From assembly GCA_963705375.1 (NCBI GenBank), contig OY970071.1:570001-602000 (forward strand): 32,000 nucleotides of DNA. Direction: 5' to 3'. This document shows, piece by piece, positions 1-24,719 of the stretch (position 1 is the first letter of the stretch; the number at the start of each line of letters is the position of its first letter). The notes under the pieces were generated by a model that did not search any database, had not been told where the DNA came from, and was given only the letters and a program-made list of their open reading frames with translations. This DNA is from Candidatus Saccharimonadota bacterium. Its GTDB lineage: Archaea > Micrarchaeota > Micrarchaeia > Micrarchaeales > Micrarchaeaceae. A program made the position numbers and the translations under genes.

Positions 1-714
1 GGCACCCACTTTTATCACATCGCCGCCAAGTGAATCCTTCAGCCTTTCTGCAGTGTCGAGCCTTATGATCTTTCCGTGATCTATTATGGCAATCCTGTTG
101 CAGATAGCATCAGCCTCTTCCATGTAATGTGTAGTCAGGAGTATGGTTACCTTCTCTTTTTTGTTCAGCTTGACTATGTAGTCCCATATTTTGCGCCTTG
201 TCTGAGGGTCCAACCCTATGGTGGGCTCATCAAGGAACAGCACGCGAGGGTTGTGCACAAAGCCCCTGGCTATCTCAAGCCGTCGCTTCATGCCGCCAGA
301 GTAAGTCTTGACCTGTTTGTTGGCCTTGCTCTCGAGCTCGACGAGCCTGAGCACTCGGTCTATCGAGTCCTTCTTCTCCTTGCCTTTTATGCCGTACAAT
401 CTTGCATGGAAGTCGAGATTTTCCCTTCCGGTGAGCTCGTCATCAAGGCTCGGCTCCTGAAAGACGATACCTATCAGCTTTCGCACAGCGTCCTTGTTCC
501 TGACAACGTCCTTGTCGTACAGACTCGCAGAGCCGGAGGTGAGCTTCATTATCGTGGACAATATGGATATCGTCGTGGTCTTGCCTGCGCCGTTGGGGCC
601 CAGCAAGCCGAATATTTCGCCTTCATTGACTTCGAAAGAGATGCCGTCTACTGCGGTAAAGTTCCCGAATTTCTTAACAAGGTTCCTTACAGAGATTGAT
701 ACTATACTCTTTTG
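1..714 (-). CDS. ABC transporter ATP-binding protein (ABC-2/DrrA-like), partial; the C-terminal end lies beyond position 1
   Basis: My minus-strand translation reads ...SISVRNLVKKFGNFTAVDGISFEVNEGEIFGLLGPNGAGKTTT (Walker A) ...YSGGMKRRLEIA (ABC signature) ...VLFLDEPTIGLD (Walker B) ...LLTTHYMEEA (H-loop). It is absent from the ORF track because it runs off the window. The GTG start at 714 is preceded by GGTGA 5 nt upstream. The listed + ORF 76..699 is its shadow. Confidence 0.9.
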
Positions 715-742
715 ACCGTTCACGCTTTCACCAGCATGCGCA

Positions 743-1432
743 TCATCTTTCCCTGAAGAAGGGGAATGGCTCGGCAAGGTTCATCACTCGCAAGTATATC
801 ATTGCCTTTTCGGTGGTGCTGCGGCAGAACTCCACAGAGTCGTTAAGGTAATTGTAGCGCAGATATCCGAACCGTTCTTTTGAATCAGAGGCAGTGTATG
901 CGAAGGTCCTGGTGGCCCCGTCCCTGAAAAGCGCGAATGTACCAATGATGTGCTTGTCCTTGTAGAAGAACGAGTACATCCGAATTGACTCGGTCCTTCC
1001 TGAAGTGTCGCTCACGATAGACTTAACAAGCGATGCAAGGTCCTTCACCTGGACAGTAGCTACTTCATCACCAAGCTTGTTTTTTATCGTGTACAGGCTG
1101 TGTGAGATCTCGACCACAGGTATCTTGTACTTCCTGTAGTCTTCAGGGGACAGCGGCACTGAATCCTTGAACGCACAATCCTCATCTTCTGCGCTCGGGT
1201 TGTACACTAGCATGTCACCCTTCGAATCTACATCGATACAGTATAGCAATCGTATGCCGTCGAGCTTTTCTCCCAGTGAGAATAGACGGTACTTGCTGCC
1301 CTGCTTTATAGCGTTTATATGGGAAGCGCCACCGCCAAGTGTGCACGTGCTCCTAGCCAGGTCGATGAGCGCGTTCAGCTGCACGTAATAGCCGTATGAA
1401 GGTTGGTGCTTTGCCTTGCGAGTCTTTGCCAT
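743..1432 (-). CDS. Hypothetical cytoplasmic protein, no recognisable motif
   Basis: 229-aa ORF with an ATG start, no signal peptide or TM segment, and a balanced composition. It is co-oriented with its neighbours and 17 to 28 nt from each. Confidence 0.6.
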   Translation of the reverse strand: MAKTRKAKHQPSYGYYVQLNALIDLARSTCTLGGGASHINAIKQGSKYRLFSLGEKLDGIRLLYCIDVDSKGDMLVYNPSAEDEDCAFKDSVPLSPEDYRKYKIPVVEISHSLYTIKNKLGDEVATVQVKDLASLVKSIVSDTSGRTESIRMYSFFYKDKHIIGTFALFRDGATRTFAYTASDSKERFGYLRYNYLNDSVEFCRSTTEKAMIYLRVMNLAEPFPFFRER

Positions 1433-1449
1433 GCGATCACAGGATAAAC

Positions 1450-2283
1450 TTATGCGGATTGAGCGTGCACGAGCAAACGTACCAGATACATGATGGCATA
1501 CGCAGGCTCATATATGATCGGGAACGCAAGCGCACCCTGGCCGAGTGCCTCATAATCGTTCATTATGCTTGCGCCTATCTTGAGAGATATGCCAGTTTCT
1601 TTGTATATGCGCGGGCTCGATATCGAGCTCACCCTGAGCTTCATATTGTAGACTCCAGGCTCATCCTCATATACGCCATACACGAACTGCTGCTTTGTGC
1701 TGTGCAGGGCTATGACGGTCTGCGTCGAGTTCAGGCCAGGAAGCCCGACAGAGGATATGATGAACGGGCTGTCCGATACGCCGGTGTTGTTTATCTGAAC
1801 ATACACGCTTGCGGATTCACCAGGACCCGCGCTCAACTCTGTAGGATGAACGTAGAGCACGAACACGTCAGGCGTAACGTTGACATACGCCTTAAACTTT
1901 AGGCTTCCTATCTTCGAGTAGTTGCCGATGTTTATCGCAGTCAGGTTGAACATGTAGGTGCCGTTGCTTGCGTCGGGTGCGACGGTTATCTTCGCCGAAA
2001 GTGTCGGGTTATAGAGTGAGGAGTTCTGCACGAGCCAGCCCGCTGGGACGTCGGTTGCGACAAACTTGTTCCAGCCAAGGTTCAGCATGCTGCCGGAGCT
2101 GCCGGTCGTTGATGCGGATATTGTTACGAAGAACGTCTGGCCCGGACCGACCTTTCCGAGATATATGCTGCCGTTGTTCTTTACTGTCGCATTGTACGGC
2201 TCCAGTATGTTAACGTAGGACGCGCTCGAGATGCACGCAAAGATGACGAATGCCATCATCAAGGCAGGAAGTATGAAGCGCAT
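1450..2283 (-). CDS. Secreted, C-terminally anchored surface protein with two CARDB/NEW3-like beta-sandwich segments (tentative)
   Basis: N-terminal signal peptide MRFILPALMMAFVIFACISSASY and a C-terminal hydrophobic segment. Nine N-x-S/T sequons. Strand-rich segments such as SASVYVQINNTGVSDSPF resemble CARDB-type domains. Confidence 0.7.
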   Translation of the reverse strand: MRFILPALMMAFVIFACISSASYVNILEPYNATVKNNGSIYLGKVGPGQTFFVTISASTTGSSGSMLNLGWNKFVATDVPAGWLVQNSSLYNPTLSAKITVAPDASNGTYMFNLTAINIGNYSKIGSLKFKAYVNVTPDVFVLYVHPTELSAGPGESASVYVQINNTGVSDSPFIISSVGLPGLNSTQTVIALHSTKQQFVYGVYEDEPGVYNMKLRVSSISSPRIYKETGISLKIGASIMNDYEALGQGALAFPIIYEPAYAIMYLVRLLVHAQSA

Positions 2284-2304
2284 AGAGGGTATTCTTTGGT
2301 TAGG

Positions 2305-2312
2305 TATTTATA
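2305..2312 (-). promoter_or_regulatory. TATA-like box (minus strand TATAAATA) centred about 25 nt upstream of the ATG at 2283
   Basis: The + strand reads tatttata at 2305-2312, overlapping the stop codon of the upstream kinase gene. The spacing fits a leaderless or very short-leader archaeal transcript. Confidence 0.35.
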
Positions 2313-2877
2313 CTCTTTTGAGTTTGCCGCTACGAAGCATTCGCAGCAGCTCGTTGAGGTTGGAGTGCAGCTGCGGGAAAGTGCCCGTGTTCACAAGCAC
2401 GTAATCTGCGGATTTTATCAGCTTCATGGTTCCAAGGGCCACATTCTTGCGGTCGCGCCACTCGAACTCCTGATAGCTGTTAGCTTTGATGCCGCCTTTC
2501 CTGTCAACGATCCTTTCGTATCTCAGCTTTTTGGGCGCAGATACTGCGACCACCACCACTTCCGGGTGAAACTTGCGGATGTATGCCAGCTCTGCAGGAT
2601 CCCTTGGGCCGGATATGACAACGTCGCCCTTGGAGCTGGCTATCTTCTTCGATGAGAGCTTCGCCACGACATCGCGGCCGAATGCCTTCTTGAGGTTGAC
2701 CACAAAAAGCTCTATGTTCTTTGCATTGATAGGCATGCCACCTATGCGCATGAGCTTCTTTATCTGCGAAGAGTGCTCCACCATGGTGAAGCCGTTTTCT
2801 TTGAGCATGCCACCGACCGTGCTCTTGCCGCTGCCGGGCATGCCTGTCAGGCATATCACAATATTTCCTTTGGCCAT
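2308..2877 (-). CDS. P-loop nucleotide kinase-like protein, UPF0200 / dephospho-CoA-kinase-like family (copy A)
   Basis: Walker A in IVICLTGMPGSGKST, plus the family-typical FEWRDRKNVALG and ADYVLVNTG motifs. The ATG at 2877 follows a GGAG motif. An alternative ATG at 2904 forms an ATGA overlap with the upstream stop. Confidence 0.8.
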   Translation of the reverse strand: MAKGNIVICLTGMPGSGKSTVGGMLKENGFTMVEHSSQIKKLMRIGGMPINAKNIELFVVNLKKAFGRDVVAKLSSKKIASSKGDVVISGPRDPAELAYIRKFHPEVVVVAVSAPKKLRYERIVDRKGGIKANSYQEFEWRDRKNVALGTMKLIKSADYVLVNTGTFPQLHSNLNELLRMLRSGKLKRV

Positions 2878-2900
2878 AATATCTCCATTGAGCGTTTTAA

Positions 2901-3461
2901 TCATTTGCCGCGTTTTCCGCGGCTTAGTTTGCCAAGAATTGCATCAAGGTCGGAGTGAAGCTGCGAAATCGTGCCGGTGTTTGCCAGATTGTAGTCTGCA
3001 GAGCGTATCACCTGCAGCATTCCAAGGGCCACGTTCCTTCTGTCGCGCCACTCGAACTCTTTGTAGTTGGCAGTCGGTATTCCGCCCTTTCTGTGCATGA
3101 TGCGATCGTATCGCACGCCCTTCGGCACCGAAAGAGTGATCATCGCAACGTTCGGATTGAGCGTGCGTATGTATGACAGTTCTGAGGTGTTGCGAACGCC
3201 TGAAATGACTACATTTCCTTTGGAACGGGCCACGGCTTCCGCAGAAAGCTTCGCGAGGATGTCTCGGCCGAATGCCTTCTTGAGCTTTACAGTGAACTTT
3301 TCCCTGCTGTGGATGTCGACTTGCGTGCCGCATATTTCCATGAGCCTCTTCAGCTCGCCGGAAAGTTCTACAAGGGTGAAGCCTCTGCTTTTCAGCATCT
3401 CCGCTACAGTGGTTTTGCCGCTGCCAGGCATGCCTGTCAGGCAGATTATTATTTTCCTCAT
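2901..3461 (-). CDS. P-loop nucleotide kinase-like protein, UPF0200 / dephospho-CoA-kinase-like family (copy B, tandem paralog)
   Basis: Contains IIICLTGMPGSGKTT, FEWRDRRNVALG and ADYNLANTG, and is collinear with copy A over its full length. The ATG at 3461 gives the same short N-terminus as copy A. The track's TTG start at 3500 would overlap the pilin gene's 3' end. Confidence 0.8.
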   Translation of the reverse strand: MRKIIICLTGMPGSGKTTVAEMLKSRGFTLVELSGELKRLMEICGTQVDIHSREKFTVKLKKAFGRDILAKLSAEAVARSKGNVVISGVRNTSELSYIRTLNPNVAMITLSVPKGVRYDRIMHRKGGIPTANYKEFEWRDRRNVALGMLQVIRSADYNLANTGTISQLHSDLDAILGKLSRGKRGK

Positions 3462-3471
3462 GATATCACAA

Positions 3472-4029
3472 TCAAGCGTACTTTGCTGTGAACGTTGCAA
3501 CCTGCACTATATTATTTTTGCTGTTCGGCAGGCTGGTTATTGTGAAGTTCAACCAGACTGCGCCGTTGAAGGAGTGGCCGGGCGAACTCCTTGCGACGCC
3601 GGAACCGCCGTAGCAGTAGATCTTCAGTATTGTTGTATTGCTGGAGTACAGCAGCACGCCGTTCGCTAGCGCACCGTTTGGATAATATTGCGAAGCTGTG
3701 ATGGCATTGTACCCGACATTTGTGTTGCCGAAAGCGGGCCCCGGCGCATTGCTTGTCGTGTTGGCCTGGCTCGAGCACGCTGCGCCTGTCACATTCATTG
3801 TCGCGCCTGTCGCCTGAGAAAGCACTATGGTAAGCACGCCGCTGTCAGCCTGCATCGATGCGCCAGTGCACGAGAAAGACGGTGCAGCATTACAGTACGA
3901 AGGGGCGAGGAAGTTGTTGAACACGCCGAGCTGCGCCACAGATAGCAGCACTATGGCTATGACGATCAACGCCATACCATAAGAAACCATGAAATCCAGC
4001 GCCGCTTGAGATCTGCGCTGCTTTTCCAC
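3472..4029 (-). CDS. Archaeal type IV pilin-like protein (class III signal peptide)
   Basis: The N-terminus MEKQRRSQAALDFMVSYGMALIVIAIVLLSV has a basic head, a Q-x-[SA]-x-[ED] motif and a roughly 20-aa hydrophobic helix. The mature part is S/T/N/G-rich with paired Cys residues. It is collinear with the first ~165 aa of the 9747..12329 protein. GTG start, 4 nt after the response-regulator stop. Confidence 0.75.
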   Translation of the reverse strand: MEKQRRSQAALDFMVSYGMALIVIAIVLLSVAQLGVFNNFLAPSYCNAAPSFSCTGASMQADSGVLTIVLSQATGATMNVTGAACSSQANTTSNAPGPAFGNTNVGYNAITASQYYPNGALANGVLLYSSNTTILKIYCYGGSGVARSSPGHSFNGAVWLNFTITSLPNSKNNIVQVATFTAKYA

Positions 4030-4033
4030 GTTA

Positions 4034-5230
4034 TCACTGTTGCTGTTCGTCTTCGGAATTTTGCTTGCCCACCTGGAGCTTCACGCCGCTAGAGTCCCTA
4101 GTTATCCGGACATCGAGACGCTCCCCGGCAAACAGCCTGCGCAGTTCGTCGTACGTGTAAGAGCCTATCTCCTTTGAGGGCTTGCTCCTGCTCTTGAGTA
4201 TCTCGTCCCTGCGCTGCTTTATTGCAGATATGCTTGATTCCTCATAAGCCAACGCAAGGCGCGGTATGTCATTGGCGTCGAACATGCCTTCAAGGTCAAG
4301 GTTTATGGCCTTGTAGCCTTCGTCCTGTAGCACGAACGGCATTATCGCGCTGAATTCCCTGCGCAGCTCTTCCATTGCCGCACCGACATCCTCACGCACA
4401 CCGGCCACAACAAAGGCGTCGCTGTTAAGGAACCCGATGAATATGCTCTTTTCCTTTATTATGTCCTGCATCAGCTGCGAGACCAGCCTTATTATGAACA
4501 TTGCGGAAGTGGGGCTTAGCCTTCTGGCATAGTCGTCAAGATGCTCTATGTGGAGCGTGCCCATCGTGTTGTGCGCGCTTGCATTCAACGAGCGCTCGAC
4601 CTCTTCGGATATGCGCGCCTCGGATGGCAGGTCGATCAACGGGTCGAAGCGCTTGCCCTTCTTTTTAAGGAATATAGTCACCAGGCTGCGCAGCTCCTGA
4701 GGATCGAAAGGCTTCTTTATGTAGTAATCCGCACCGTATTTGATGCCCTTGAACCTGTTGCTCGTAGGGTCCATGGCGCTTACAAGTATGACGACAGTCC
4801 TGGCAAGGGCGCTGTTGCTCTTTATCTCCTGACATATCTCGAGACCATCCTTGTTAGGGAGCATCAGATCGAGAACCACCAAGTCAGGCGCGTGCTTCTT
4901 TATCTCGATCATTGCCTCTGCGCCATCATACACCTGCTTTATCGCGAAGTCCTTGCCTATCGATAGGGCCATCAGCTTGTTTATGTTTTTGTCGTCTTCA
5001 ACTATGAGCACGTTTCTCGGAGATTCCTGCTGCAGCATGTAGTACATCATGATGCCTCCAGAGCTGCGTGATGCTATCAGCTTCCTGCTTTCAAGCGTCG
5101 ATAGCGCCTGGGCAAGCTCTTTGGTGTTCATCCCCATATTCTTCAAGGCATCATATAACTCGTCCTGCGAGGCCTGCTGTCTCTCGTTGATTACCGCGAG
5201 AATGCCGCCCAATTCATTCTCATCCTGCAT
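4034..5230 (-). CDS. Response regulator: N-terminal winged-HTH-like domain, REC receiver, C-terminal degenerate GGDEF/palm-like domain
   Basis: The REC signature is complete: VEDD acidic pocket, phospho-acceptor D in DLVVLDLMLP, ILVSA, and K in YIKKPF. The C-terminal part reads FDPLIDLPSEARISEEVERSL...GTLHIEHLDDYARRL...IFIGFLNSDAFVVAGV, which is collinear with the GGDEF consensus DPLTgLpNR...iDiDhFK...RyGGDEFavl but has LNSDAF in place of GGDEF. Confidence 0.85.
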   Translation of the reverse strand: MQDENELGGILAVINERQQASQDELYDALKNMGMNTKELAQALSTLESRKLIASRSSGGIMMYYMLQQESPRNVLIVEDDKNINKLMALSIGKDFAIKQVYDGAEAMIEIKKHAPDLVVLDLMLPNKDGLEICQEIKSNSALARTVVILVSAMDPTSNRFKGIKYGADYYIKKPFDPQELRSLVTIFLKKKGKRFDPLIDLPSEARISEEVERSLNASAHNTMGTLHIEHLDDYARRLSPTSAMFIIRLVSQLMQDIIKEKSIFIGFLNSDAFVVAGVREDVGAAMEELRREFSAIMPFVLQDEGYKAINLDLEGMFDANDIPRLALAYEESSISAIKQRRDEILKSRSKPSKEIGSYTYDELRRLFAGERLDVRITRDSSGVKLQVGKQNSEDEQQQ

Positions 5231-5259
5231 CTGGTCACCGGAAGAATATGAATGAAAAG

Positions 5260-5275
5260 GAATATTATATTATCT
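5260..5275 (-). promoter_or_regulatory. TATA-like box for the response-regulator-led gene string
   Basis: The minus strand reads gataatataatattcc about 38 nt upstream of the ATG at 5230. A GGTGA Shine-Dalgarno motif ends 5 nt before the ATG. Confidence 0.4.
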
Positions 5276-5290
5276 GTGTGCGCTGCGGCG

Positions 5291-5310
5291 ATACATTAAT
5301 CTTAATGTAT
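5291..5310. promoter_or_regulatory. Perfect 9-bp inverted repeat ATACATTAA-TC-TTAATGTAT (candidate operator/UAS, or terminator stem for the GNAT gene)
   Basis: Read directly from the sequence. It lies just upstream of the TATA-like box of the response-regulator gene string and 27 nt downstream of the GNAT stop. Confidence 0.4.
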
Positions 5311-5336
5311 AGCACTCCATCCGCCTTTTGTTGTGT

Positions 5337-5822
5337 CTATATGGGCAGGCGCATCTCATACCATTCAAACCCACCATGTTCTGATTTTGACCGGCCTAGC
5401 AGAACAAAACCATACCTTCGATAATATTCGACCATGTTTTCTTTGCAGATTAGCAGTATGTTCTTCTTTCCAAGTTTTTTTGAGATTTCAACGAATTTGC
5501 CCATCAACAGTGCAGAGATGCCCCTTCCCTGAAATTCTGGAAGAACTGCCAAGGAGAATATGACAATGTTCTTACCGGACGGGACGTGACCGATCATGTC
5601 TTTGAATCTTTCGTCGGCTATGTCTTCCTTGTCTGTCGAGGCACTGTTTATTATGCCCACAATCTGGATGCCGATTTCTGCAACAAGAAAGCCCTGAGGG
5701 AACGTTTCGATTCTCTTTTTTATTCGTTCCTTTATGGCACCTTCCGAAGTGTAACAATTAGATTCTATGTTAAAGCAACGATCTAGATCAGCGGGCATTA
5801 CCTGCCGGATTATTATTTTCAA
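5337..5822 (-). CDS. GNAT family N-acetyltransferase
   Basis: Acetyl-CoA binding motif LAVLPEFQGRGISALLM, followed by YYRRYGF. The start is ambiguous: TTG 5822 gives MKIIIRQV..., and GTG 5864 and ATG 5798 are also possible. Confidence 0.85.
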   Translation of the reverse strand: MKIIIRQVMPADLDRCFNIESNCYTSEGAIKERIKKRIETFPQGFLVAEIGIQIVGIINSASTDKEDIADERFKDMIGHVPSGKNIVIFSLAVLPEFQGRGISALLMGKFVEISKKLGKKNILLICKENMVEYYRRYGFVLLGRSKSEHGGFEWYEMRLPI

Positions 5823-5905
5823 GGGTATTCCCTTTTGGCGCTTGTAGAATAAGGATGAAAGCACTTATTAAAAAGCTTATTGACAATACAATACAGGTTG
5901 TGTTG

Positions 5906-6934
5906 ATGTTTCGCCAAAATAATTCAAACATGAAGGCACTGCAGGTCCCAGTTGCGAAAATCGCAATAGGGGGTATCGTCATTGTAGTTGCCGCACTTTC
6001 GTATATGATGCTCAACGGAAGCAGCATAAACACAATAAATTCTGCAACCACGCTCAGCATCACAAAGTCTGCAAGCGCATTCAGAATGGGCGATTACACA
6101 TACGGGATAGCGCTTGCTAAGGCAGTTCCGAGCAGCAACGTGGCATACATATATCTCAACAGGCTTCCGGCGTTCATGAACCCGCTGCTCAACGTGACAG
6201 TTTACACAGGGCAAGGAACAAGGATCAATGCAGGCACATCTTTTGCCAACATAGAGCTCCAGGCAGCATCTGTGGGCAGCAACTCTGTGGCACTTACAAT
6301 AACTCCGATAAGCACAAACCTGCAGATAGCGCCAGACAGCGCATACATCTCGACCGTGCGCACATCCTTGCAGAGCTTGCAGCAGAACGGCACAGCAAGC
6401 GGTTCGCCGACATCCAATACGGCTAACACTGCGGCCAACGCCATAACCACAACGTCTGTCCTGAGCACATCCACTACGACAGTGACAGCAGGCAACGTAA
6501 CCAGGTCAGAGATAATGGCAGCACTGCAGAAGAGCATATATTACCCATTGATGGTCAACTACAGCAGCATTTACGCGAACACTCTAGGCTGCACGCCGGT
6601 AATGTACAATGCGACATACACCATGATAAAGGGCAGCGCCCCTGCGGGATTCAACACATTCCAGAACGTCAGCCAGTACGTGCCGTATTCGCTGTACAGC
6701 AACATAACTAGCAACGGCGCTGGCGTATATTCTGTGATTTATCGCACCAGAACGATAAGCACGCAATACAACAATTCTGCCGCACTGACAATAAGGATAA
6801 ATGCAAGCGCAGGGATCATCGTAGGTAGCGGCGTGTTCAGTGGCGTGTTCATGGGCCTGAACCATACACAAGTGAGCAACGGATACACGAGCATAGCGGG
6901 CATAAAGAGCGCGTGCGCGGCCTACATGAGCTGA
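5906..6934 (+). CDS. Membrane-anchored or secreted S/T-rich protein, unknown family
   Basis: N-terminal hydrophobic anchor VAKIAIGGIVIVVAALSYMML, a central S/T/N-rich linker (SGSPTSNTANTAANAITTTSVLSTSTTTVT) and many N-x-S/T sequons. Alternative starts at 5855 and 5930. Confidence 0.65.
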   Translation: MFRQNNSNMKALQVPVAKIAIGGIVIVVAALSYMMLNGSSINTINSATTLSITKSASAFRMGDYTYGIALAKAVPSSNVAYIYLNRLPAFMNPLLNVTVYTGQGTRINAGTSFANIELQAASVGSNSVALTITPISTNLQIAPDSAYISTVRTSLQSLQQNGTASGSPTSNTANTAANAITTTSVLSTSTTTVTAGNVTRSEIMAALQKSIYYPLMVNYSSIYANTLGCTPVMYNATYTMIKGSAPAGFNTFQNVSQYVPYSLYSNITSNGAGVYSVIYRTRTISTQYNNSAALTIRINASAGIIVGSGVFSGVFMGLNHTQVSNGYTSIAGIKSACAAYMS

Positions 6935-9138
6935 TCCGCACTTCTTTTCTTCGACTTCGGCTTGATGGGCAGGCTGAACCAGAATGTGCTGCCCCTTCCT
7001 TGTTGCGAGGTGAAGCCTATTCTGCCTCCGTGCAGCTTGATGATCTCTTTTGTTATGGACAAGCCAAGACCTGTGCCCGCACCGACCTGCGTCACCAAGT
7101 CTTTCTTGGGCGCCTCGTAGAATTTCTTGAATATCTTGTGCTTGTCCTCGTCGCTTATGCCTATACCGGTATCGATCACGTCGACCTCAACCGTCCTTTT
7201 GCTCTTCTTGAAAACTTTCACCGTTATGCTACCGCGCTCTGTGAACTTCACAGAGTTGCCTATGAGGTTCACGAGCACCTGAATCAGCCTGTTCGGGTCA
7301 GCAGTGATCTTCGGCACATCGAAGCTGGTGTTCCATGAGAACTCGAGATGCTTATTTGTCGCTGCGTCGCGCAGAGCGGTTATGCTGTGGCTGTTCGCAA
7401 GCTCGTTCAGATCGACTTCTTTCAGCTCAAGCTTGACCTTGTTCGCTTCCAGCTTCGCAGCGTCGAGCACCTGCTGTATGATCAGCATCAGCCTGTCGGC
7501 CTCTTGTGTTATTGTAGAAACGTAGTTGCGTTGCTCTTCGTTGAGGGGGCCGAACTCACCACCGTATAGAAGAGAGGAGAAGCCCTTTATGTTCGTCAGC
7601 GGCGTCTTGAGCTCGTGGGATATGTTGTATATGAACTGGGACTTCAGGAAGTTGTTTGCCCTTAGCTTGTTGGCTTCGTTCGCAAGTTCCTTTATCTTGC
7701 CCCCCTGATCCTGAAGGAGCCTCTTGGTCTCAAGCTCTTTCGCGAAGATGACATAGCTTGCGTCCCCGTTCACATCCTTCACGAGCCGCATCGAGCATGA
7801 TGTCGAAATGCGGCTGCTGTTCTTGGCTATGAAATCGACATATGAGTTGTCCACTTTTGTGCCGTTTATAACGTACTTCACGTCGCGCTCGAATATTGTT
7901 GGTTCGGCATATATGCTCTTCACGTCCCTTCCTATCAGCTCGTTCCTGGAATACTGGAGCATCGCTTCGACAGGCATGTTGCACTCCTTTATGTAACCAA
8001 GAGTATCCATGACGATCACGAGCTCAGAGGTGTTGCTGATGAAATCCTCGAGGGCGGCATTCACTGCAGAGATGTAGCTCTCTGCCTGTGCGTTAGTGAA
8101 AATGAGCACATAGCCCAGAGAATAGTTTGCAAGGGCGTACCGCAGCTTGGTCGACGCAGTCTTGATTCCATTGACATCGAATGTCCCGTGAAGGGGCTTG
8201 CCGTTGCTCATCGCAACGTCACGTTTGAACGCATCGCGCTCGTTCTCTTGCAGCATGCTGACGAAGCTCTTGCCCTGGAGCATGTCGCCGTTATAGCCCG
8301 TTATGCTCGAGAATGCGTTTGTCGAAGTTACGATGCCAAGATCGCGGTCTAGGACAAGGACGCCTATCTGCCCGCTGCCCTGCATCGCAGACGCCGCTGC
8401 ACTCAGCGTTTCAAGATCGGTGATGTCCTGCATTGAGATGTGAAGCAGCTTGTCGCTTATCTTGCTCGTGCTTATGTTGTAGACGCGCTCTTTGCGCTGA
8501 ACCTTCATGCCCTTGCCTGTCAGTGATGCCAGCTGACCGAAGTCCAAGCCTATCTCACGTACAGTGGCATGCGCAGGCAAATCCAGCATCCGTATGGCCG
8601 CACTGTTAGACTTCACCACAGAACCGTCGGTAGAAACGATCATTTGCGGCAGGATAGAGTTGAATGCACCGTTGAAATAGTTCGCGATGCTGAGATTCCT
8701 GCTGTTCTCTCGCTTGTACATCAGGGCAAAACCGACAAGATACGCACCGAAAGATATGCTACCTGTGACCTCTTCCGTGAATTTGTTTTCAGACGTTGAA
8801 AGAAGCCTGAGCACCGCTATGAGTCTACCGTTAACTATGACCGGCACGATAGCGCAGCTCTTGTAGCCTTTGCTGCGGTAGTTGATCAACTCTGGGAATG
8901 ACGAGAACTCGCTCAATTGGTTGTCTATGTAGGGCTTGCGCGTGTTGAAAAGATAGCCTTCAAGCGTGCTGGACGGCACCCTTTCATCAGACATGCTATC
9001 CATGCTGACCTGTTCGATTCCGAACGTGTTCGCTATAACACTCGAGAAATGTTTTGAGAGCTCTTCATCATTGGTGGCGCTGCTAAGTACAGGAATCAAT
9101 TCGTTAAGAAGTTTTTTTACAGAGGCATCGTCCGCCAT
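6922..9138 (-). CDS. Soluble sensor histidine kinase (GAF-like N-terminus, about three PAS-like modules, HisKA, HATPase_c)
   Basis: H-box FIYNISHELKTPLTNIKGF, N-box LIQVLVNLIGNSVKFT, G1 DTGIGI and G2 GTGLGLSITKEIIKLHGG. There is no TM segment. Confidence 0.9.
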   Translation of the reverse strand: MADDASVKKLLNELIPVLSSATNDEELSKHFSSVIANTFGIEQVSMDSMSDERVPSSTLEGYLFNTRKPYIDNQLSEFSSFPELINYRSKGYKSCAIVPVIVNGRLIAVLRLLSTSENKFTEEVTGSISFGAYLVGFALMYKRENSRNLSIANYFNGAFNSILPQMIVSTDGSVVKSNSAAIRMLDLPAHATVREIGLDFGQLASLTGKGMKVQRKERVYNISTSKISDKLLHISMQDITDLETLSAAASAMQGSGQIGVLVLDRDLGIVTSTNAFSSITGYNGDMLQGKSFVSMLQENERDAFKRDVAMSNGKPLHGTFDVNGIKTASTKLRYALANYSLGYVLIFTNAQAESYISAVNAALEDFISNTSELVIVMDTLGYIKECNMPVEAMLQYSRNELIGRDVKSIYAEPTIFERDVKYVINGTKVDNSYVDFIAKNSSRISTSCSMRLVKDVNGDASYVIFAKELETKRLLQDQGGKIKELANEANKLRANNFLKSQFIYNISHELKTPLTNIKGFSSLLYGGEFGPLNEEQRNYVSTITQEADRLMLIIQQVLDAAKLEANKVKLELKEVDLNELANSHSITALRDAATNKHLEFSWNTSFDVPKITADPNRLIQVLVNLIGNSVKFTERGSITVKVFKKSKRTVEVDVIDTGIGISDEDKHKIFKKFYEAPKKDLVTQVGAGTGLGLSITKEIIKLHGGRIGFTSQQGRGSTFWFSLPIKPKSKKRSADQLM

Positions 9139-9204
9139 CGCCGTCGCCCAAAATTAACCAAAATACAATCTTGTTGATTGCATCTACCATCTTAAGCAGC
9201 CAAG

Positions 9205-9214
9205 ATATTTAAAA
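9205..9214 (+). promoter_or_regulatory. TATA-like box (atatttaaaa) in the divergent HK/HEPN intergenic region
   Basis: It sits 16 to 25 nt upstream of the ATG at 9230 and about 35 to 40 nt upstream of the ATG at 9248. Confidence 0.35.
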
Positions 9215-9229
9215 TGGCGCACGCATATT

Positions 9230-9604
9230 ATGACTGGTGGAGAGGGCATGGAACGCATCGAGGAAATGCTGGTGGGCGCCTCGAAGGACTTCGATCTTGC
9301 GAAGCGCTACAAACAGGCAGGGGAATTCACCATAGCCGTGCTGCTCTATACAGAAGCCACAGAAAAGGTCCTCAAAGTCCTTTTCATGCGCGAGAACAGA
9401 AAGGAACCGCCTATCGGAGCATCGATAGAGTATCTGGCGCTGAAGGCGAGAATGCCAAAGGAGCTGTTGGAGGACACCGCTCTGCAGTATGCGGACAGTG
9501 ACGACCAGGTCAACGCAGACAGCAGGGTAGAGGAACGCGCGCTCGATATGGAGATCGCGGTGAAGAGGCTTCTGGACTATAGCATGGCATACGTATTGGC
9601 CTGA
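9230..9604 (+). CDS. HEPN-domain-like small helical protein (no obvious Rx4-6H motif)
   Basis: ASKDFDLAKRYKQAGEFTIAVLLYTEATEKVLKVLFM...PPIGASIEYLALKA..PKELLE matches the HEPN (PF05168-type) helix pattern A..dl..A......g.y..a....qqA.EKalKall. The start may instead be the ATG at 9248. Confidence 0.5.
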   Translation: MTGGEGMERIEEMLVGASKDFDLAKRYKQAGEFTIAVLLYTEATEKVLKVLFMRENRKEPPIGASIEYLALKARMPKELLEDTALQYADSDDQVNADSRVEERALDMEIAVKRLLDYSMAYVLA

Positions 9605-9746
9605 ACCCGCACCTGGAACGCGTTTGGATAGATATTTTGCTCTAACATAGAGTACGAAAGTGCGCGCTCTATGCGTGTGCATAGTGAATTATCGAATCTT
9701 GCGGATTGCCGCTAGTTAGTGCAACTTTTGCACATACACACACCAA

Positions 9747-12329
9747 TCACGTAGGGAAATATTCCATCACTGTGTTGGAAGGACCGCAATTGACCCAGTA
9801 GACGTTGCCGCCGCTGACCACTATGCCAGAAGGGTTGTACTGACCTGCGGCAAGTGGAATGATTGTGCCTCCAGAGTATTCCATAATAGAACCACCGACG
9901 GGGGCAGTCCAGTAGACGTTGCCGCCACTTACGGCTATTCCCTCAGGAGAGAGTTGATTTGAAGCAAGAACGATAGGTGTGCCGCCGGAATACTCCATTA
10001 CATTCCCAGTATAACCAGAACCACGAGAGTTTGCCCAGTATACATTACCGCCGGTGTCGACAGCAATATCTATAGGACTTGCCTGCCCAGTAGCTATCGG
10101 CGCAACAGTGACGCCGTCGTACTTCATGATGTTGCCGCTCCAGGCATCTGCCCAATAGACGTTGCTGCCGCTGGCCATTATCCCATATGGGCCACTCTGG
10201 TCAAAGGCGATGGTGTTGGTTGTGACGCCGTTGTACTCCATAACACTGTTGCTGCCGAACAAGTTAGTCCAGTAGACGTTGCCTCCGCCGTCTACTGTCA
10301 CAAATTGAGGGAAGTTCTGACCTGTGGCGATGGTGTTGGTTGTTACGCCGTTGTACTCCACGATATTGCCAGGAGATATAGAAACATATGCATTGGCCCA
10401 GTAGACGTGGCCGTTGCTGTCGACAAATATGCCCTGTGGATCACCTTGCCCAGTAGCTATCGGCGCAACAGTGACGCCGTCGTACTTCATGACATTGCCA
10501 TTTGGGTAAGCGCTATCGGTCCAGTAGAGGTTACCGCTGGAGTCGGCAGCTATGAAGCAAGGATAGTTCTGATCTGATGCTATAGGACGTTTGAAGTGGG
10601 CCGTTTCGCTCACCGCACTCGAAGGCATAGTAAACAACCAGGGATCAGAGGTGCTTGGGTTAGAGGTGAATGAAGATGTGCCAACCCACGCAGAGAAGGT
10701 ATATCCTGAACTTGTATCTGCAGTAGCCGTAAGAATGATATCATTTCCAGAGACATAGTTTCCATCAGAGCAACCACCAGAATGGGTTGGAGAGGCATAG
10801 ACAGAAGTGCCTCCTATACTGTATGAGAGCGTGAGAGGATAGCAAGTTTGAGATCCGCCACCGCCGCCACCTCCGCCCCCGCCGCTGCCACCGGATCCTG
10901 TGCAAGTATAACCTGCCTGGCACTCCACCACAGCGCCAGAACCGCTGTCTGCCCAATAGACGTTGCCGCTGCTGTCGACGGCTATGCCCGCAGGCGCGCT
11001 CTGCCCAGTGGCTATCGAATTAACTGTGCCTCCAGAATATTTCATCACGTCGCCGGAGCCCATGTCAGTCCAGTAGACGTTGCCCCTGTTGTCCACAGCT
11101 ATGCCGAGAGCGCCAGTCTGTCCGGTCGCGAGGGGCCTTACTGTATTCGAGCTCGCAACATATTCCATCACGTCAGCAGATGAGCTTCCAACGTTATCTA
11201 AGCTGCTCAGGTGAGTGTTTATCCAATAGACGTTGCCGCTGCTGTCGACCGCAATCAAAAGCGGGCCATCCGCTGTCGCTATTGTTCGATCAGAGCTGCC
11301 AGAATGCTCCCGGATTTCACTTGAACCAAAGTCAGTCCAGTAGACGTTGCCGTTGCGTGCAGCTATGCCGAGAGGCTCGCCCGCTCCATGCACAAGAACA
11401 CTGGCCACACTACCAGGGTACACCATCACGTTGCCGTCTCCAGCGACAGTCCAGTAGACGTTGCCGTTGCCGAAAGTTATTCCAATAGGCGATGATAGTC
11501 CAGAAGCGATATTAGTCGTCCCACCAGAAGAATGCTTCGACACGTTACCAGAGTTCATATCGGTCCAGTAGACGTTGCCGCTGCCATCTACGGCTATAAA
11601 GGCCGGATTGTCACCATTGAGATCGGTAGCAAGCGGCGTCACAGTATTCGTGCTTTTGACATACTTCATAACATTAGCATTGTCTTGCGTGGACTCTGTC
11701 CAGTAGACGTTTTCACTGCTGTCGACGGCTACTCCGAATGCGCTGTTCTGCCCTGAAGCCAATATTATCAAATTTTCGGATTGAGAGCCGCCACCACCGC
11801 CTCCGATTGTTGTGGTGCCGCCACCGCCTCCGCCACTTCCAGAACCAAAGGCAGCGACCCTGGCATTCACCGACCCAATTTGCACCACAAGGCCTGTTTG
11901 ACCGTTCTGCGCGTACTTCATCCAAAGCGTTCCGGCAAAAGGAGTGCCAAGTGCGTTAGATGATAAAGGGCATGGGAAGTCGACAGTCTGCTGCGAGCCC
12001 GCACCTAGCGCAATCCCGTTTGCTATAGTAGTATAACTTGAACTTGGAGGGGCAGCAGAGCCGCTTGAACATGCGACACCGACAACATTTATTGGCTGTG
12101 AAGAGCCTATCGTTGTGGACAAAATACCGTTGGAAAGCAGGACAGGGTTTGTGCACAGGTAGCCGACCTGTGTTACACAAGAGGTGCTTGAGGCCGCGCC
12201 AGTGCGAAAGACGCCCAAGCTGAACAGTGCGGCAAGCACGACAGCAATGATGAGAATCGCCCAGCCGTACGTCATCAAGTATTCCATAGCGGACTGAACT
12301 CTTAGTTTACGCTTGGGAGCGTTAGACAT
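9747..12329 (-). CDS. Giant pilin-like adhesin: class III signal peptide plus pilin domain, poly-Gly linker, 7-blade YWTD/NHL-type beta-propeller, poly-Gly linker, InlB-B-repeat-like domain, second 7-blade propeller
   Basis: The N-terminus reads KRKLRVQSAMEYLMTYGWAILIIAVVLAALFSL. Fourteen repeats have the pattern P.GIAVDssGNVYWtD...g.vmkY.g. The linkers are GSGSGGGGGGTTTIGGGGGGS and GSGGSGGGGGGGGGGS. The middle segment is YPLTLSYSIGGTSVYASP...GNDIILTATADTSSGYTFSAWVG. The ATG at 12329 follows AGGGTGA; a GTG at 12335 is also possible. Confidence 0.85.
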   Translation of the reverse strand: MSNAPKRKLRVQSAMEYLMTYGWAILIIAVVLAALFSLGVFRTGAASSTSCVTQVGYLCTNPVLLSNGILSTTIGSSQPINVVGVACSSGSAAPPSSSYTTIANGIALGAGSQQTVDFPCPLSSNALGTPFAGTLWMKYAQNGQTGLVVQIGSVNARVAAFGSGSGGGGGGTTTIGGGGGGSQSENLIILASGQNSAFGVAVDSSENVYWTESTQDNANVMKYVKSTNTVTPLATDLNGDNPAFIAVDGSGNVYWTDMNSGNVSKHSSGGTTNIASGLSSPIGITFGNGNVYWTVAGDGNVMVYPGSVASVLVHGAGEPLGIAARNGNVYWTDFGSSEIREHSGSSDRTIATADGPLLIAVDSSGNVYWINTHLSSLDNVGSSSADVMEYVASSNTVRPLATGQTGALGIAVDNRGNVYWTDMGSGDVMKYSGGTVNSIATGQSAPAGIAVDSSGNVYWADSGSGAVVECQAGYTCTGSGGSGGGGGGGGGGSQTCYPLTLSYSIGGTSVYASPTHSGGCSDGNYVSGNDIILTATADTSSGYTFSAWVGTSSFTSNPSTSDPWLFTMPSSAVSETAHFKRPIASDQNYPCFIAADSSGNLYWTDSAYPNGNVMKYDGVTVAPIATGQGDPQGIFVDSNGHVYWANAYVSISPGNIVEYNGVTTNTIATGQNFPQFVTVDGGGNVYWTNLFGSNSVMEYNGVTTNTIAFDQSGPYGIMASGSNVYWADAWSGNIMKYDGVTVAPIATGQASPIDIAVDTGGNVYWANSRGSGYTGNVMEYSGGTPIVLASNQLSPEGIAVSGGNVYWTAPVGGSIMEYSGGTIIPLAAGQYNPSGIVVSGGNVYWVNCGPSNTVMEYFPT
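10084..10492. repeat. Intragenic near-identical DNA repeats within the second propeller
   Basis: An exact 46-mer, tgcccagtagctatcggcgcaacagtgacgccgtcgtacttcatga, occurs at 10084-10129 and 10447-10492, a 363-nt in-frame offset. A 35-mer with one mismatch occurs at 10206-10240 and 10326-10360, a 120-nt offset. Confidence 0.9.
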
Positions 12330-12418
12330 TTTCACACCCTTGATTTTAATAGTAAAGAATCAGCCTACTTAACCTTTTCCTCTGTGTTTTTATACAGTGA
12401 GCGCACAATTAATGTGAA

Positions 12419-15710: not shown

Positions 15711-16301
15711 TCACGTGTAGTTTAGTCTTACCTGGTTGTTGTACACGCTGCCGTTCGCAGTGATGAGTGCAAACACAGAAACGTTTATGATCGAACCCAC
15801 AGACTTGAGCCGGGTAATGCTCGCAGAGTAGTTTCGCCTATTGAACATGATGTTCACAGGATAGCTGTTCACGTACAGTATCGCATTGGATGGCAGAAGG
15901 AGGTGCGCTGACGCAGTTATGTTCGAAAGTGCAAGCGCAGGAACAGCACGTATGTTCTGTTGCAATGCGTATGCATCTATGCCTGAGAGCGTGACCTGAT
16001 AGTTGTCCCCTATGCGGATATAGTTGCTTATGGAGCCGTTAGTTTCCATCACTGACAGGGTAGCATTCAGAAGCTCTATGGTGCTGTTGCTCTGGTTGTG
16101 CAGCGCTATGTAAGCGCCAGCACTGTATCCAGTTATTGTTGCCTTAGATGCGCCTATCGCAAGATAGGTAGCTGGTGCCTTTGTTGTGGTGGAGGTCGCA
16201 CCTGCAATATTTGATGATGATATGTATGAGGAAAGGAATATGAGCGCAACGAAGAGTGCACCCAGAAGCAGCATCAACTTTTGACCATTGCTTTTTTCCA
16301 T
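15711..16301 (-). CDS. Membrane-anchored or secreted sequon-rich hypothetical protein
   Basis: N-terminal hydrophobic segment KLMLLLGALFVALIFLSSYI, a T-rich stretch and multiple N-x-S/T sequons. Its stop lies 4 nt upstream of the GluRS start. ATG at 16301; the track's 16310 start is a GTG. Confidence 0.6.
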   Translation of the reverse strand: MEKSNGQKLMLLLGALFVALIFLSSYISSSNIAGATSTTTKAPATYLAIGASKATITGYSAGAYIALHNQSNSTIELLNATLSVMETNGSISNYIRIGDNYQVTLSGIDAYALQQNIRAVPALALSNITASAHLLLPSNAILYVNSYPVNIMFNRRNYSASITRLKSVGSIINVSVFALITANGSVYNNQVRLNYT

Positions 16302-16413
16302 AATATACACTGTAACAGGTTCGGAGTGCAGTTGTTATATTCAAACAGCCAACAGACACTTCCAAAGCCTTGCACATCAAGCACAATTCTTTTTACCGTT
16401 AATGGCTATATAC

Positions 16414-20094: not shown

Positions 20095-20472
20095 ATGAGT
20101 ATTTTGAATAGACTTGGGAAAGGCTTGGGCCTCTCTACAAAAGAGCTTGATGTAGAGGAATACATGAATGCTGCGGAGATGGATGACGTTGACATAATGC
20201 ACGAGCCCGCAGAGCACTATGTGAAGCCTGTTGCGCTTGAGCAGCAGGGCGACGTCGAGCAGATAAAGAACGAGCTCGCACAGGGCAACATTGTTCTCAT
20301 GAACATCAAGGAGATGTCAAAGAGGCCGAACACCTTGAAGACCATTGTTGACGACCTGAAGGAGGACGTCGAGAAGATAAACGGCGACATCGCAAGGATC
20401 GACGATGAAAAGATACTCCTGACGCCTAAGAAGATAAAGATCATAAAGACTAAGAAGAAGGTTTCTGAGTAG
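20095..20472 (+). CDS. sepF: Cell division protein SepF homolog
   Basis: The C-terminal core YVKPVALEQQGDVEQIKNELAQGNIVLMNIKEM...LKTIVDDLKEDVEKINGDIARIDDEKILLTP fits the SepF/DUF552 pattern. A GGTGA Shine-Dalgarno motif lies 5 nt upstream of the ATG. Confidence 0.8.
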   Translation: MSILNRLGKGLGLSTKELDVEEYMNAAEMDDVDIMHEPAEHYVKPVALEQQGDVEQIKNELAQGNIVLMNIKEMSKRPNTLKTIVDDLKEDVEKINGDIARIDDEKILLTPKKIKIIKTKKKVSE

Positions 20473-23691: not shown

Positions 23692-24705
23692 TCACATGCT
23701 TTCTATGCCTTTGATGAAGCTTGCGTCCATCGATCCCGAGCTCGCTATGTGCTTCGTGTTGAATTTCGGGGTGACGCCTGTGATCACAGACATGACGTTT
23801 ATCTGGTCTCCGAGCTCCGGCATCAGCCTTGCACCGAAGATCACGTTTGCCCTTGGGTCAAGACCCTCTGTAACACCAGCACCGACTCTTGTAGCGTCCT
23901 CTATTGTCAGCGATTCGCTGCCCGAAACGTGCACGAGCGCGCTCTTTGCACCTTCCCTGTCAACTTCCAGCAACGGGTGGGCAAGAGTGGACTTTATCGC
24001 TTTGTCGACCTTGTCCTGACCTGAACCATGCCCGAGGCTTATCGTTGCAGTACCGGCATCGCGCAGAACAGCGCGCACATCCGCGAAGTCCAGATTTATC
24101 AGGCTTGGGATCGTTATCGTGTCTGCAATTCCCTTAACTGCGTTTGCCGCAACGTTGTCAACGAGCTCGAACGCCTTCTCGACCTGCAGGTTTGGCGCAT
24201 AGCTGAGCAGCTTGTCGTTCTCTATCACGATTGTCGTGTCCGCATTCTTGCACAGTTGCTCAAGGCTCCAGTCTGCCTTTGCTTTCCTGCTGCGCTCCAA
24301 CGAGAAAGGATATGTAACGAACGCAACTACCAGAGAGCCCTGTTCCCTTGCAAGCCTGGCCACTATCGGTGCAGAGCCACCTCCGGTTCCACCTCCAAGA
24401 CCAGCAGCTAGGAATATCATATCATAGCCCTCTATCAGGCTCATTATCTCCCTGCTGCTTGCCTCTGCGGCCTTTGCTCCAAGCTCAGGATAGCCGCCGA
24501 CACCAAGACCCTGCGTCAGCTCCTTGCCTATGAGTATGCGTTTGTGAGCACGTATCATGTTAAGGTGGTTCGCGTCGGTATTCATTGCGATCGTTGTGGC
24601 GCTCTTTATTCCGCGAGTGTAGAGCCGGTTCACAAGATTGCTACCCATACCTCCGAGGCCCACGACAGCGAGCTTTGCGATAAACTCATTTTCTTCCATG
24701 TTCAT
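23692..24705 (-). CDS. ftsZ: Cell division GTPase FtsZ, downstream paralog
   Basis: VVGLGGMGSN, NTDANHL, GLGVGGYPELG, the tubulin signature GLGGGTGGGSAP, and the T7 loop NLDFADV. The ATG at 24705 is preceded by AGGTGGA (24711-24717). The track's upstream extension to 24864 overlaps the other ftsZ gene. Confidence 0.9.
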   Translation of the reverse strand: MNMEENEFIAKLAVVGLGGMGSNLVNRLYTRGIKSATTIAMNTDANHLNMIRAHKRILIGKELTQGLGVGGYPELGAKAAEASSREIMSLIEGYDMIFLAAGLGGGTGGGSAPIVARLAREQGSLVVAFVTYPFSLERSRKAKADWSLEQLCKNADTTIVIENDKLLSYAPNLQVEKAFELVDNVAANAVKGIADTITIPSLINLDFADVRAVLRDAGTATISLGHGSGQDKVDKAIKSTLAHPLLEVDREGAKSALVHVSGSESLTIEDATRVGAGVTEGLDPRANVIFGARLMPELGDQINVMSVITGVTPKFNTKHIASSGSMDASFIKGIESM

Positions 24706-24719
24706 AGATATCCACCTAT

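Follow-up and report, generated by a model that had tools for sequence, protein, structure and literature searches.

We analyzed a 32-kb stretch of DNA from a micrarchaeal genome (assembly GCA_963705375.1, contig OY970071.1, positions 570,001 to 602,000), referred to here as the window, which encodes a two-component system next to genes for a type IV pilin-like protein and predicted envelope proteins. On the minus strand, the response regulator gene (RR, 4034..5230) is followed by those of the pilin-like protein Pil185 (3472..4029), two UPF0200-type P-loop kinases, K2 (2901..3461) and K1 (2308..2904), the orphan secreted or anchored predicted glycoprotein S277 (1450..2283), the cytoplasmic orphan U229 (743..1432), and the N-terminal 238 residues of a DrrA-type ABC ATPase (1..714), which continues past the window edge. 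The gaps are 4 nt between RR and Pil185, 10 nt between Pil185 and K2, 24 nt between K1 and S277, 17 nt between S277 and U229, and 28 nt between U229 and the ABC gene. Upstream of RR lie the genes of a GNAT acetyltransferase (5337..5864, minus strand), the orphan membrane-anchored protein Sec359 (5855..6934, plus strand and thus divergent from RR), the histidine kinase (HK; 6922..9138, minus strand), a small HEPN-like open reading frame (ORF) on the plus strand, and an 862-aa propeller pilin-like protein (9747..12335, minus strand). All ORFs listed in an initial annotation of this DNA are present, and so are the gaps given there, except that the 23 nt stated for K2 and K1 apply only if K1 begins at an internal Met (MAKGNIV); with the longest ORF, the two genes overlap by 4 nt.

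All window proteins were run by tblastn against 82 loci, 80 of which were kept from the 240 RR relatives that a scan with the RR alignment found in one genome per species, and two of which came from an earlier look-up; about 160 further RR-bearing genomes lie outside this set. When matches spanning at least 60% of the query were counted, a six-gene core recurred that consists of HK, Sec359, RR, Pil185, S277, and U229. RR was found in 78 loci with a median identity of 57%, S277 in 62 loci (56%), HK in 60 (45%), Pil185 in 71 (42%), Sec359 in 59 (33%), and U229 in 52 (32%). The order RR-Pil185-S277-U229 occurred in 33 loci and RR-Pil185-kinase-S277-U229 in 15, and the other architectures were shorter versions of these, with contig ends interrupting many of the respective loci. 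In 74 loci, the gene immediately after RR, in the same orientation, was that of Pil185. The median distance between the two was 2.5 nt, with overlaps in some loci, and 73 of the 74 pairs were at most 60 nt apart, which is a spacing as of translationally coupled genes. In 51 loci, U229 came next after S277, at a median distance of 13 nt. The HK gene is usually located 3.5 kb upstream of RR on the same strand, and the Sec359 gene lies at about -1.2 kb from RR on the opposite strand.

This co-occurrence has to be judged against the conservation of the surroundings. Fibrillarin (median identity 62% in 48 loci), GluRS (50% in 40 loci), and RpoE (65% in 23 loci), together with FKBP, are syntenic in most loci as well, so that most of the synteny signal is not specific to the cluster and synteny alone is weak evidence. 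It could therefore be argued that the genes share no functional link between the two-component system and the surface proteins, and that the slowly rearranging backbone of a reduced genome has simply preserved their inherited order, in agreement with a flank of fibrillarin, a TPR protein, GluRS, FKBP, and RpoE that keeps its order with similar divergence in most loci. We consider this unlikely, as the cluster stays together where the flank does not. Gene order and strands were changed in four loci (L066, L069, L076, and L077), and the housekeeping neighbors were gone in L066, L069, and L076, where the cluster had survived inversion or translocation away from them. Nevertheless, all four rearranged loci had HK, RR, Pil185, and S277 together within a span of about 5-9 kb, which also included U229 in three loci and Sec359 in two. 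In L069, U229 and S277 point leftward, RR, Pil185, and Sec359 follow pointing rightward, and HK again points leftward, all within 6.7 kb and with neither fibrillarin nor GluRS nearby. The genes of L066 are arranged in this way too, where a 2-kb insert is present and the cluster extends over about 8.6 kb, and L076 is similar except that Sec359 is missing. In L077, HK converges on S277, and U229 and Sec359 were not detected. The tight RR-Pil185 spacing is a further point against mere inheritance of gene order.

The same conclusion emerges from the downstream side. For a reciprocal comparison, S277 homologs on other contigs served as anchors of three loci. HK-(Sec359)-RR-pilin lay upstream in each of them, whereas the genes on the downstream side were unrelated from locus to locus. 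L001, L084, L085, and L086 differ in what follows U229 or S277. As the downstream flank varies freely and the operon does not, which is not what simple inheritance of order would suggest, the downstream boundary of the unit is U229, or S277 where U229 is missing.

The initial annotation had drawn this unit much larger. In that proposal, the whole region of about 12 kb, with an ABC exporter, kinases, GNAT, propeller pilin, HK, RR, pilin, and surface proteins, constitutes a single adhesin-display system, and it is true that these genes are contiguous with short gaps in the window and that the propeller pilin resembles an adhesin. The neighborhood comparison that it had called for returned RR-Pil185-S277(-U229) as the recurring part of the string RR-pilin-kinase-kinase-surface protein-ABC, but not the remainder, as kinases were present in about a quarter of the loci and a full-length ABC gene in 1 of 82. 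The kinases K1 and K2, which are 58% identical to each other, match the UPF0200 protein SSO1041 of Sulfolobus (PDB 3h0k and 3lw7; adenylate-kinase-related) at E 3e-22 over residues 16-185, contain the P-loop GMPGSGKST, and are clear members of that family by sequence (K2 also matches Pfam AAA_18). A kinase gene lies between Pil185 and S277 in about 20 of the 82 loci, and two copies were found only here and in the close relatives L003 and L004. K1 and K2, a tandem duplicate, are thus accessory and optional inserts in the operon rather than core members. The ABC ATPase scored 334.6 bits with TIGR01188 (cutoff 312.45). In the 82 loci, it had one full-length match (L003, 84% identity) and one 33% partial match (L024); no locus counted at the 60% coverage threshold because the query stops at the window edge. 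In L003, the ABC homolog is not adjacent to U229, as a gene encoding 606 aa on the other strand lies in between, and an ABC2_membrane permease follows it.

The GNAT and the propeller pilin, which had been regarded as parts of the same module, were found in none of the 82 loci. The GNAT gene was recognized by Pfam, has no homolog in any of these loci, and has a GC content of 0.428 in comparison to 0.50 for the window. It is located exactly in the divergent RR/Sec359 promoter region, between Sec359 and the promoter of RR, and therefore has the appearance of a genome-specific insertion of recent date. The 862-aa protein has a class III-like N-terminus, propeller repeats in two regions (Pfam Vgb_lyase, NHL, SBBP, and SGL) that are separated by Gly-rich (poly-Gly) linkers, and an InlB B-repeat. 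Only its N-terminal signal matched other loci, and in none of them did a match cover at least 60% of it. Its gene lies between HEPN and fibrillarin in this genome only, whereas in L003 HEPN is directly followed by fibrillarin. The protein is thus variable and genome-specific and, judging from its sequence, plausibly a strain-specific adhesin. In summary, the ABC ATPase, the GNAT, the propeller pilin, and the duplicated kinases are local additions outside the conserved module, and a 12-kb adhesin-display system is extremely unlikely.

The RR consists of a winged helix (residues 1-66), a REC domain (73-189), a GGDEF-like domain (about 204-350), and a C-terminal β-hairpin. The REC domain was recognized by Pfam (PF00072, 7e-24), and E78, D79, D80, the phospho-acceptor D121, S151, and K173 are invariant among 61 sequences. 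The AlphaFold2 model, with a predicted local distance difference test score (pLDDT) of 81.8, contains the winged helix, REC, an α/β domain, and the C-terminal hairpin. Pfam matches to winged helix-turn-helix (wHTH) families were weak, but the N-terminal pattern α1-β1-α2-α3-β2-β3 of the model is that of a winged helix. In a Foldseek search with this model, the best matches were the REC-GGDEF cyclases WspR (3bre and 3i5a), PleD, and DgcR, with E-values of 4e-12 to 1e-10 over 240-380 columns, and structures with only a REC domain followed at about 5e-9. The Pfam GGDEF model did not match the RR even at E ≤ 10. In the modeled β2-hairpin-β3 element (residues 263-278), the position of the GG[DE]EF site reads NSDAF, with a family consensus of [LF]NSxxF and variable middle residues, and an RxxD I-site was not visible at the expected spacing. 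Because of this replaced motif, the C-terminal domain, as read from its sequence, is GGDEF-like but catalytically dead and not a diguanylate cyclase. RR orthologs comprised more than 100 full-length protein clusters (about 400 aa, 52-93% identity) and 240 genome matches. Nearly all of these records were named Micrarchaeota, and the few labeled Marsarchaeota, Acidoferrum/Acidoferrales, or Methanothrix are taken to be mislabels.

Upstream of RR, the minus strand of the window carries a BRE/TATA-like element (BRE, transcription factor B recognition element; 'AAAG..TAATATT', with the TATA box at 5261-5267, 37 nt before the ATG) and the Shine-Dalgarno sequence GGTGA (5235-5239, 9 nt before the ATG). 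A TATA-like box with at most two mismatches was present in each of the 79 distinct RR upstream regions, in most cases at a distance of 36-40 nt from the start codon, and GGTGA was present in 78 of them, mostly at -9/-10. The sequence of this element (5235..5267) thus points to the promoter and ribosome-binding region of an operon with RR as its first and Pil185 as its second gene, which in its conserved form would end with U229.

The HK contains GAF, two to three PAS, HisKA (PF00512, 7e-20), and HATPase_c (PF02518, 6.8e-28) domains in the order GAF-PAS-PAS-HisKA-HATPase_c and has no transmembrane (TM) segment, indicating a soluble protein. Its gene converges with that of Sec359, and the 3' ends overlap by 13 nt (6922-6934), with a similar overlap or near-abutment in L003, L030, and L069. 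In L084 (L084:763-2986), HK is called as two genes, one of 566 aa with HisKA and one of 182 aa with HATPase_c; the kinase may be split here, or a frameshift or an error in the assembly interrupts it. As judged from the intact catalytic and phospho-acceptor residues, HK and RR are competent two-component parts. According to an earlier survey (Galperin et al., 2018; PMC5847659), the complete Micrarchaeota genome Mia14 has a single HK and a single RR with an HTH, and Ca. Micrarchaeum acidiphilum has an RR of the type 'WspR-like (REC + inactivated GGDEF)'. We predict a phosphotransfer from HK to RR on the grounds of this sole pair in Mia14 and of the linkage of the two genes in 60 of about 78 loci. 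HK still adjoins the cluster in the rearranged L066, L069, L076, and L077.

Pil185 begins with the family motif [KR][SAG]|QAALDFxxSYG, as seen in the alignment, which is followed by a hydrophobic TM helix. The N-terminus is short and basic, position -1 is a small residue, and the hydrophobic helix that begins right after the cleavage site spans about 20 residues, which are the features of a class III signal. The Kyte-Doolittle profile peaks at 2.68 for residues 19-37, in agreement with a single TM helix, and Q8 (+1), D12 (+5), Y17, and four Cys residues are invariant among 32 sequences. An acidic +5 residue is found in bacterial pilins too. Pil185 had no Pfam or NCBIfam match, also not at E ≤ 10, and no PDB match in a profile search; 5 of the 32 family members had weak matches to DUF7287. 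In L018, the ORF at the position of Pil185 encodes 610 aa (L018:11142-12974) with a pilin-like N-terminus and a large C-terminal extension, indicating that the pilin module can gain extra domains.

It is in principle conceivable that Pil185 is not a filament subunit but a membrane or pseudopilin-type protein with a pilin signal, which together with S277 would form a fixed envelope structure and not a pilus. Substrate-binding proteins with class III signals in Sulfolobus are a parallel, and the protein is moderately well conserved (42%), has the four invariant Cys residues, apparently occurs as a single copy beside RR, and has the highly conserved S277 as its constant partner. However, +1 Q, +5 D, and the hydrophobic helix are features of polymerizing pilins, and although sequence cannot separate the two options, we consider the non-filament variant distinctly unlikely. 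By analogy with known pilins, Pil185 would be matured by a prepilin peptidase and assembled by a PilB/PilC-type machine encoded elsewhere. Genes for FlaI/PilB, FlaJ/PilC, or a prepilin peptidase were found nowhere in the 32-kb window, in agreement with what the initial annotation had stated for this locus, and FlaI/PilB and FlaJ/PilC were not noticed beside the cluster in five related loci in which all genes were read. The absence of pilus assembly genes had been regarded as a distinguishing feature of the locus, but two type IV pilus systems and one FlaK-like peptidase are encoded at other sites of the Mia14 genome, and the missing PilB/PilC therefore does not point to a novel type of system.

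The other three core proteins are orphans. S277 has a signal peptide or N-terminal TM helix and nine sequons, and its family alignment shows conserved sequons, an invariant INNTGVSD motif, and a conserved hydrophobic C-terminal tail. All of its 334 homologs are 'hypothetical' and none has a Pfam domain, and those with a usable source name are all from Micrarchaeota or are likely mislabels. A profile search found no PDB sequence match for S277, and no usable Pfam or NCBIfam family was obtained; a CARDB match (E 0.009) was below the cutoff, and one family member each matched Fn3 or PKD below the threshold. As S277 is conserved like a housekeeping gene, its sequence fits better with a core envelope role than with a fast-evolving or host-specific adhesin. 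At its N-terminus, Sec359 has a TM anchor; it further contains a linker rich in Thr, 12 sequons, 23% Ser+Thr, and two invariant Cys residues, and had no Pfam match and no PDB match by profile search. In L066 and L069, its gene lies inside the RR operon. We also considered S277 and Sec359 as candidates for the Micrarchaeota S-layer protein, and rejected this assignment, as the published one is a 101-kDa protein with an S-layer domain (Micr_00292).

U229, of which homologs were found only in Micrarchaeota, yielded a confident AlphaFold2 model (pLDDT 89.2; predicted template modeling score, pTM, 0.86). Foldseek found no match to this model at E ≤ 0.001 in PDB or BFVD, and there was no Pfam or NCBIfam match. 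As far as the model permits, U229 may thus represent a new, Micrarchaeota-restricted fold. A repeated weak profile match to the eRF1 C-domain (E 0.18) had raised a possible link to translation, which we rejected because the confident model gave no significant match to eRF1 or to any other structure in PDB or BFVD.

Most of the protein descriptions in the initial annotation were thus borne out, namely the wHTH-REC-GGDEF-like RR (REC by Pfam; winged helix and GGDEF-like fold by AlphaFold2 and Foldseek), the class III-signal pilin (conserved motif and hydrophobic helix in Pil185), the two UPF0200-like kinases, the GNAT, the ABC ATPase and the TM-less GAF-PAS HK (Pfam and TIGR01188 matches), the sequon-rich S277 and the Ser/Thr-rich Sec359, and the second pilin with two β-propellers and a class III-like N-terminus. 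The Pfam searches that it had proposed, together with NCBIfam searches, assigned families to RR, HK, GNAT, kinases, ABC ATPase, and propellers, but no usable family to Pil185, S277, U229, or Sec359, even at E ≤ 10.

Taken together, we favor with moderate confidence the view that the six genes are a Micrarchaeota-specific cluster around a two-component system that couples signaling to conserved envelope proteins. The gene content, the domain architectures, the operon-like spacing, and the co-conservation across rearrangements are its observed basis. In the proposed mechanism, the soluble GAF-PAS HK would sense an intracellular cue and phosphorylate D121 of the RR. By analogy with WspR and PleD, phosphorylation would promote RR dimerization through REC and the GGDEF-like domain, and the dimer would bind DNA through its N-terminal winged helix. 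The operon with RR, Pil185, the optional UPF0200 kinase, S277, and U229 would be transcribed from its own conserved promoter, with Sec359 in divergent orientation, and phosphorylated RR would control at least its own operon, by which the cell could adjust a conserved part of its envelope. A prepilin peptidase and a type IV pilus machinery encoded elsewhere would process Pil185 and possibly polymerize it.

Besides the syntenic housekeeping flank, several points weigh against this view. The RR-Sec359 intergenic region contains no conserved operator in the 79 regions compared but only the basal BRE/TATA element, a T-rich stretch, and the Shine-Dalgarno sequence, and this lack of an operator motif would also suit the mere inheritance of gene order discussed above. 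The HK gene is absent from the neighborhood in several loci, such as L023 and L059. With a median identity of 56%, S277 comes near to fibrillarin (62%), which is unusually high conservation for an exposed adhesin. Pil185, S277, Sec359, and U229 have no recognizable family or structural relatives, and the term 'surface module' therefore relies only on signal peptides, sequons, and Cys patterns. Finally, co-transcription, DNA binding, autoregulation, surface location, and a role in host attachment are predictions from sequence. The signal-controlled display of an adhesive pilin or surface coat, as suggested in the initial annotation, is therefore retained with respect to the link between a two-component system and pilin-like and surface genes, but not with respect to the adhesive part, given the housekeeping-like conservation of S277 and a propeller pilin that is unlinked elsewhere.

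The direction of the signal could also be the opposite of the one in our proposed mechanism. If the envelope proteins were the input rather than the output, Pil185, Sec359, and S277 would act as a contact or envelope sensor that relays to the soluble HK, possibly via U229, and host attachment would be sensed. In favor of this reading, the HK itself is devoid of membrane and extracellular domains, a single TM helix and a short cytoplasmic N-terminus are present in both Sec359 and Pil185, all partners stay together through rearrangements, and Micrarchaeota are host-dependent. However, such a relay would require a hypothetical interaction of these proteins, GAF and PAS domains, which archaeal HKs typically have, suffice as sensors in the cytoplasm, and the HK gene is sometimes unlinked, and we regard this alternative as improbable. 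There is, in our estimation, also just a small chance that the only two-component system of Mia14, together with the set of pilin-like, glycoprotein, and orphan genes, is a host-contact or attachment switch and thus the control point of the DPANN symbiotic life in this phylum. Such a switch, which we find doubtful in either form, could operate by surface proteins that signal contact to the soluble HK or by an HK that decides on the display of the attachment apparatus.

Our preferred view of a signaling-envelope cluster has a bacterial counterpart. In Pseudomonas, Myxococcus, and Geobacter, the PilS-PilR system is encoded beside the major pilin gene pilA and controls its expression, with PilS being a multi-pass membrane kinase that senses PilA and PilR an NtrC-type sigma-54 activator. 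An HK and a DNA-binding RR (here predicted) have their genes next to that of a type IV pilin or pilin-like protein in both cases, and PilS-PilR is the closest functional analogue. Here, however, the HK is soluble with GAF and PAS domains, the predicted promoter belongs to the archaeal TATA/BRE type, the RR has a wHTH-REC-dead GGDEF architecture and is encoded in a predicted operon with the pilin gene, and regulation is only proposed. In structure, the RR model comes closest to WspR, PleD, and DgcR over REC and the C-terminal domain, and dimerization by phosphorylation is plausibly shared, but the RR differs from them by its [LF]NSxxF motif, the lack of a visible I-site, and the extra winged helix and C-terminal hairpin.

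The same HK and RR proteins, including the RR architecture, have already been reported in a study that covered domain architectures only and did not report the operon with Pil185, S277, U229, and Sec359 (Galperin et al., 2018; PMC5847659). With archaeal type IV filament loci, such as those of the archaellum, Aap, Ups, and Epd-like pili (Makarova et al., 2016; PMC4858521), the locus shares a pilin-like subunit with a class III signal, but it differs from them in having no FlaI/PilB, FlaJ/PilC, or peptidase gene, and due to the absence of the ATPase and the platform, it falls outside these canonical loci. Two-component systems and Micrarchaeota are not mentioned in that census (Makarova et al., 2016; PMC4858521). 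The UPF0200 kinases, known from SSO1041, appear here in the setting of an operon. We found no published description of the RR-Pil185-S277-U229 neighborhood, including in papers on cultivated Micrarchaeota. The initial claim of an undescribed phosphorelay-linked surface module thus stands for the linkage of HK and RR to pilin-like and surface genes, and has to be given up for the 12-kb unit and for the RR architecture. What is undescribed is the lineage-specific operon that links a two-component system to envelope proteins, whereas the RR architecture and the HK/RR pair of Mia14 were already known.

The remaining genes of the window are archaeal housekeeping genes (fibrillarin, GluRS, RpoE, SepF, two FtsZ, Cdc6, and aIF5A), and scans for tRNA genes and Rfam families gave no matches in the window. 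Beside GluRS, a gene on the minus strand (15711-16310) encodes a 199-aa orphan with an N-terminal TM helix, nine sequons, and 20% Ser+Thr; it keeps its position in about 33 related loci and is predicted to be another uncharacterized envelope glycoprotein. The HEPN-like ORF between HK and fibrillarin (9230-9604, plus strand; Pfam E 0.0018, below the cutoff) was found at the same position in about 19 related loci, with no nucleotidyltransferase partner visible. SepF (20095-20472, plus strand), two tandem FtsZ paralogs (23692-25805, minus strand), and Cdc6/Orc1 (27624-28838, plus strand) lie within 8 kb of each other and form a neighborhood of cell division and replication initiation, possibly near an origin. 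A 747-aa ORF at 29750-31993 (minus strand) had no Pfam match at E ≤ 0.001.

Host recognition, attachment, and their regulation are an open question for DPANN archaea, which have very few signaling genes. Against this background, it is of interest that a two-component system is conserved at the level of housekeeping genes and has been kept with pilin-like and envelope genes in about 80 species-level genomes. The six genes are a small and testable candidate set that is also present in the cultivated Ca. Micrarchaeum harzensis A_DKE (NZ_CP060530.1, about 898.7-905.4 kb); they further supply three orphan families, with U229 having a confidently predicted fold without structural relatives. Should the link prove to be only positional, the over-extended module of about 12 kb would still have been corrected. 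The interest in the cluster would rise if the operon proves to control host attachment.

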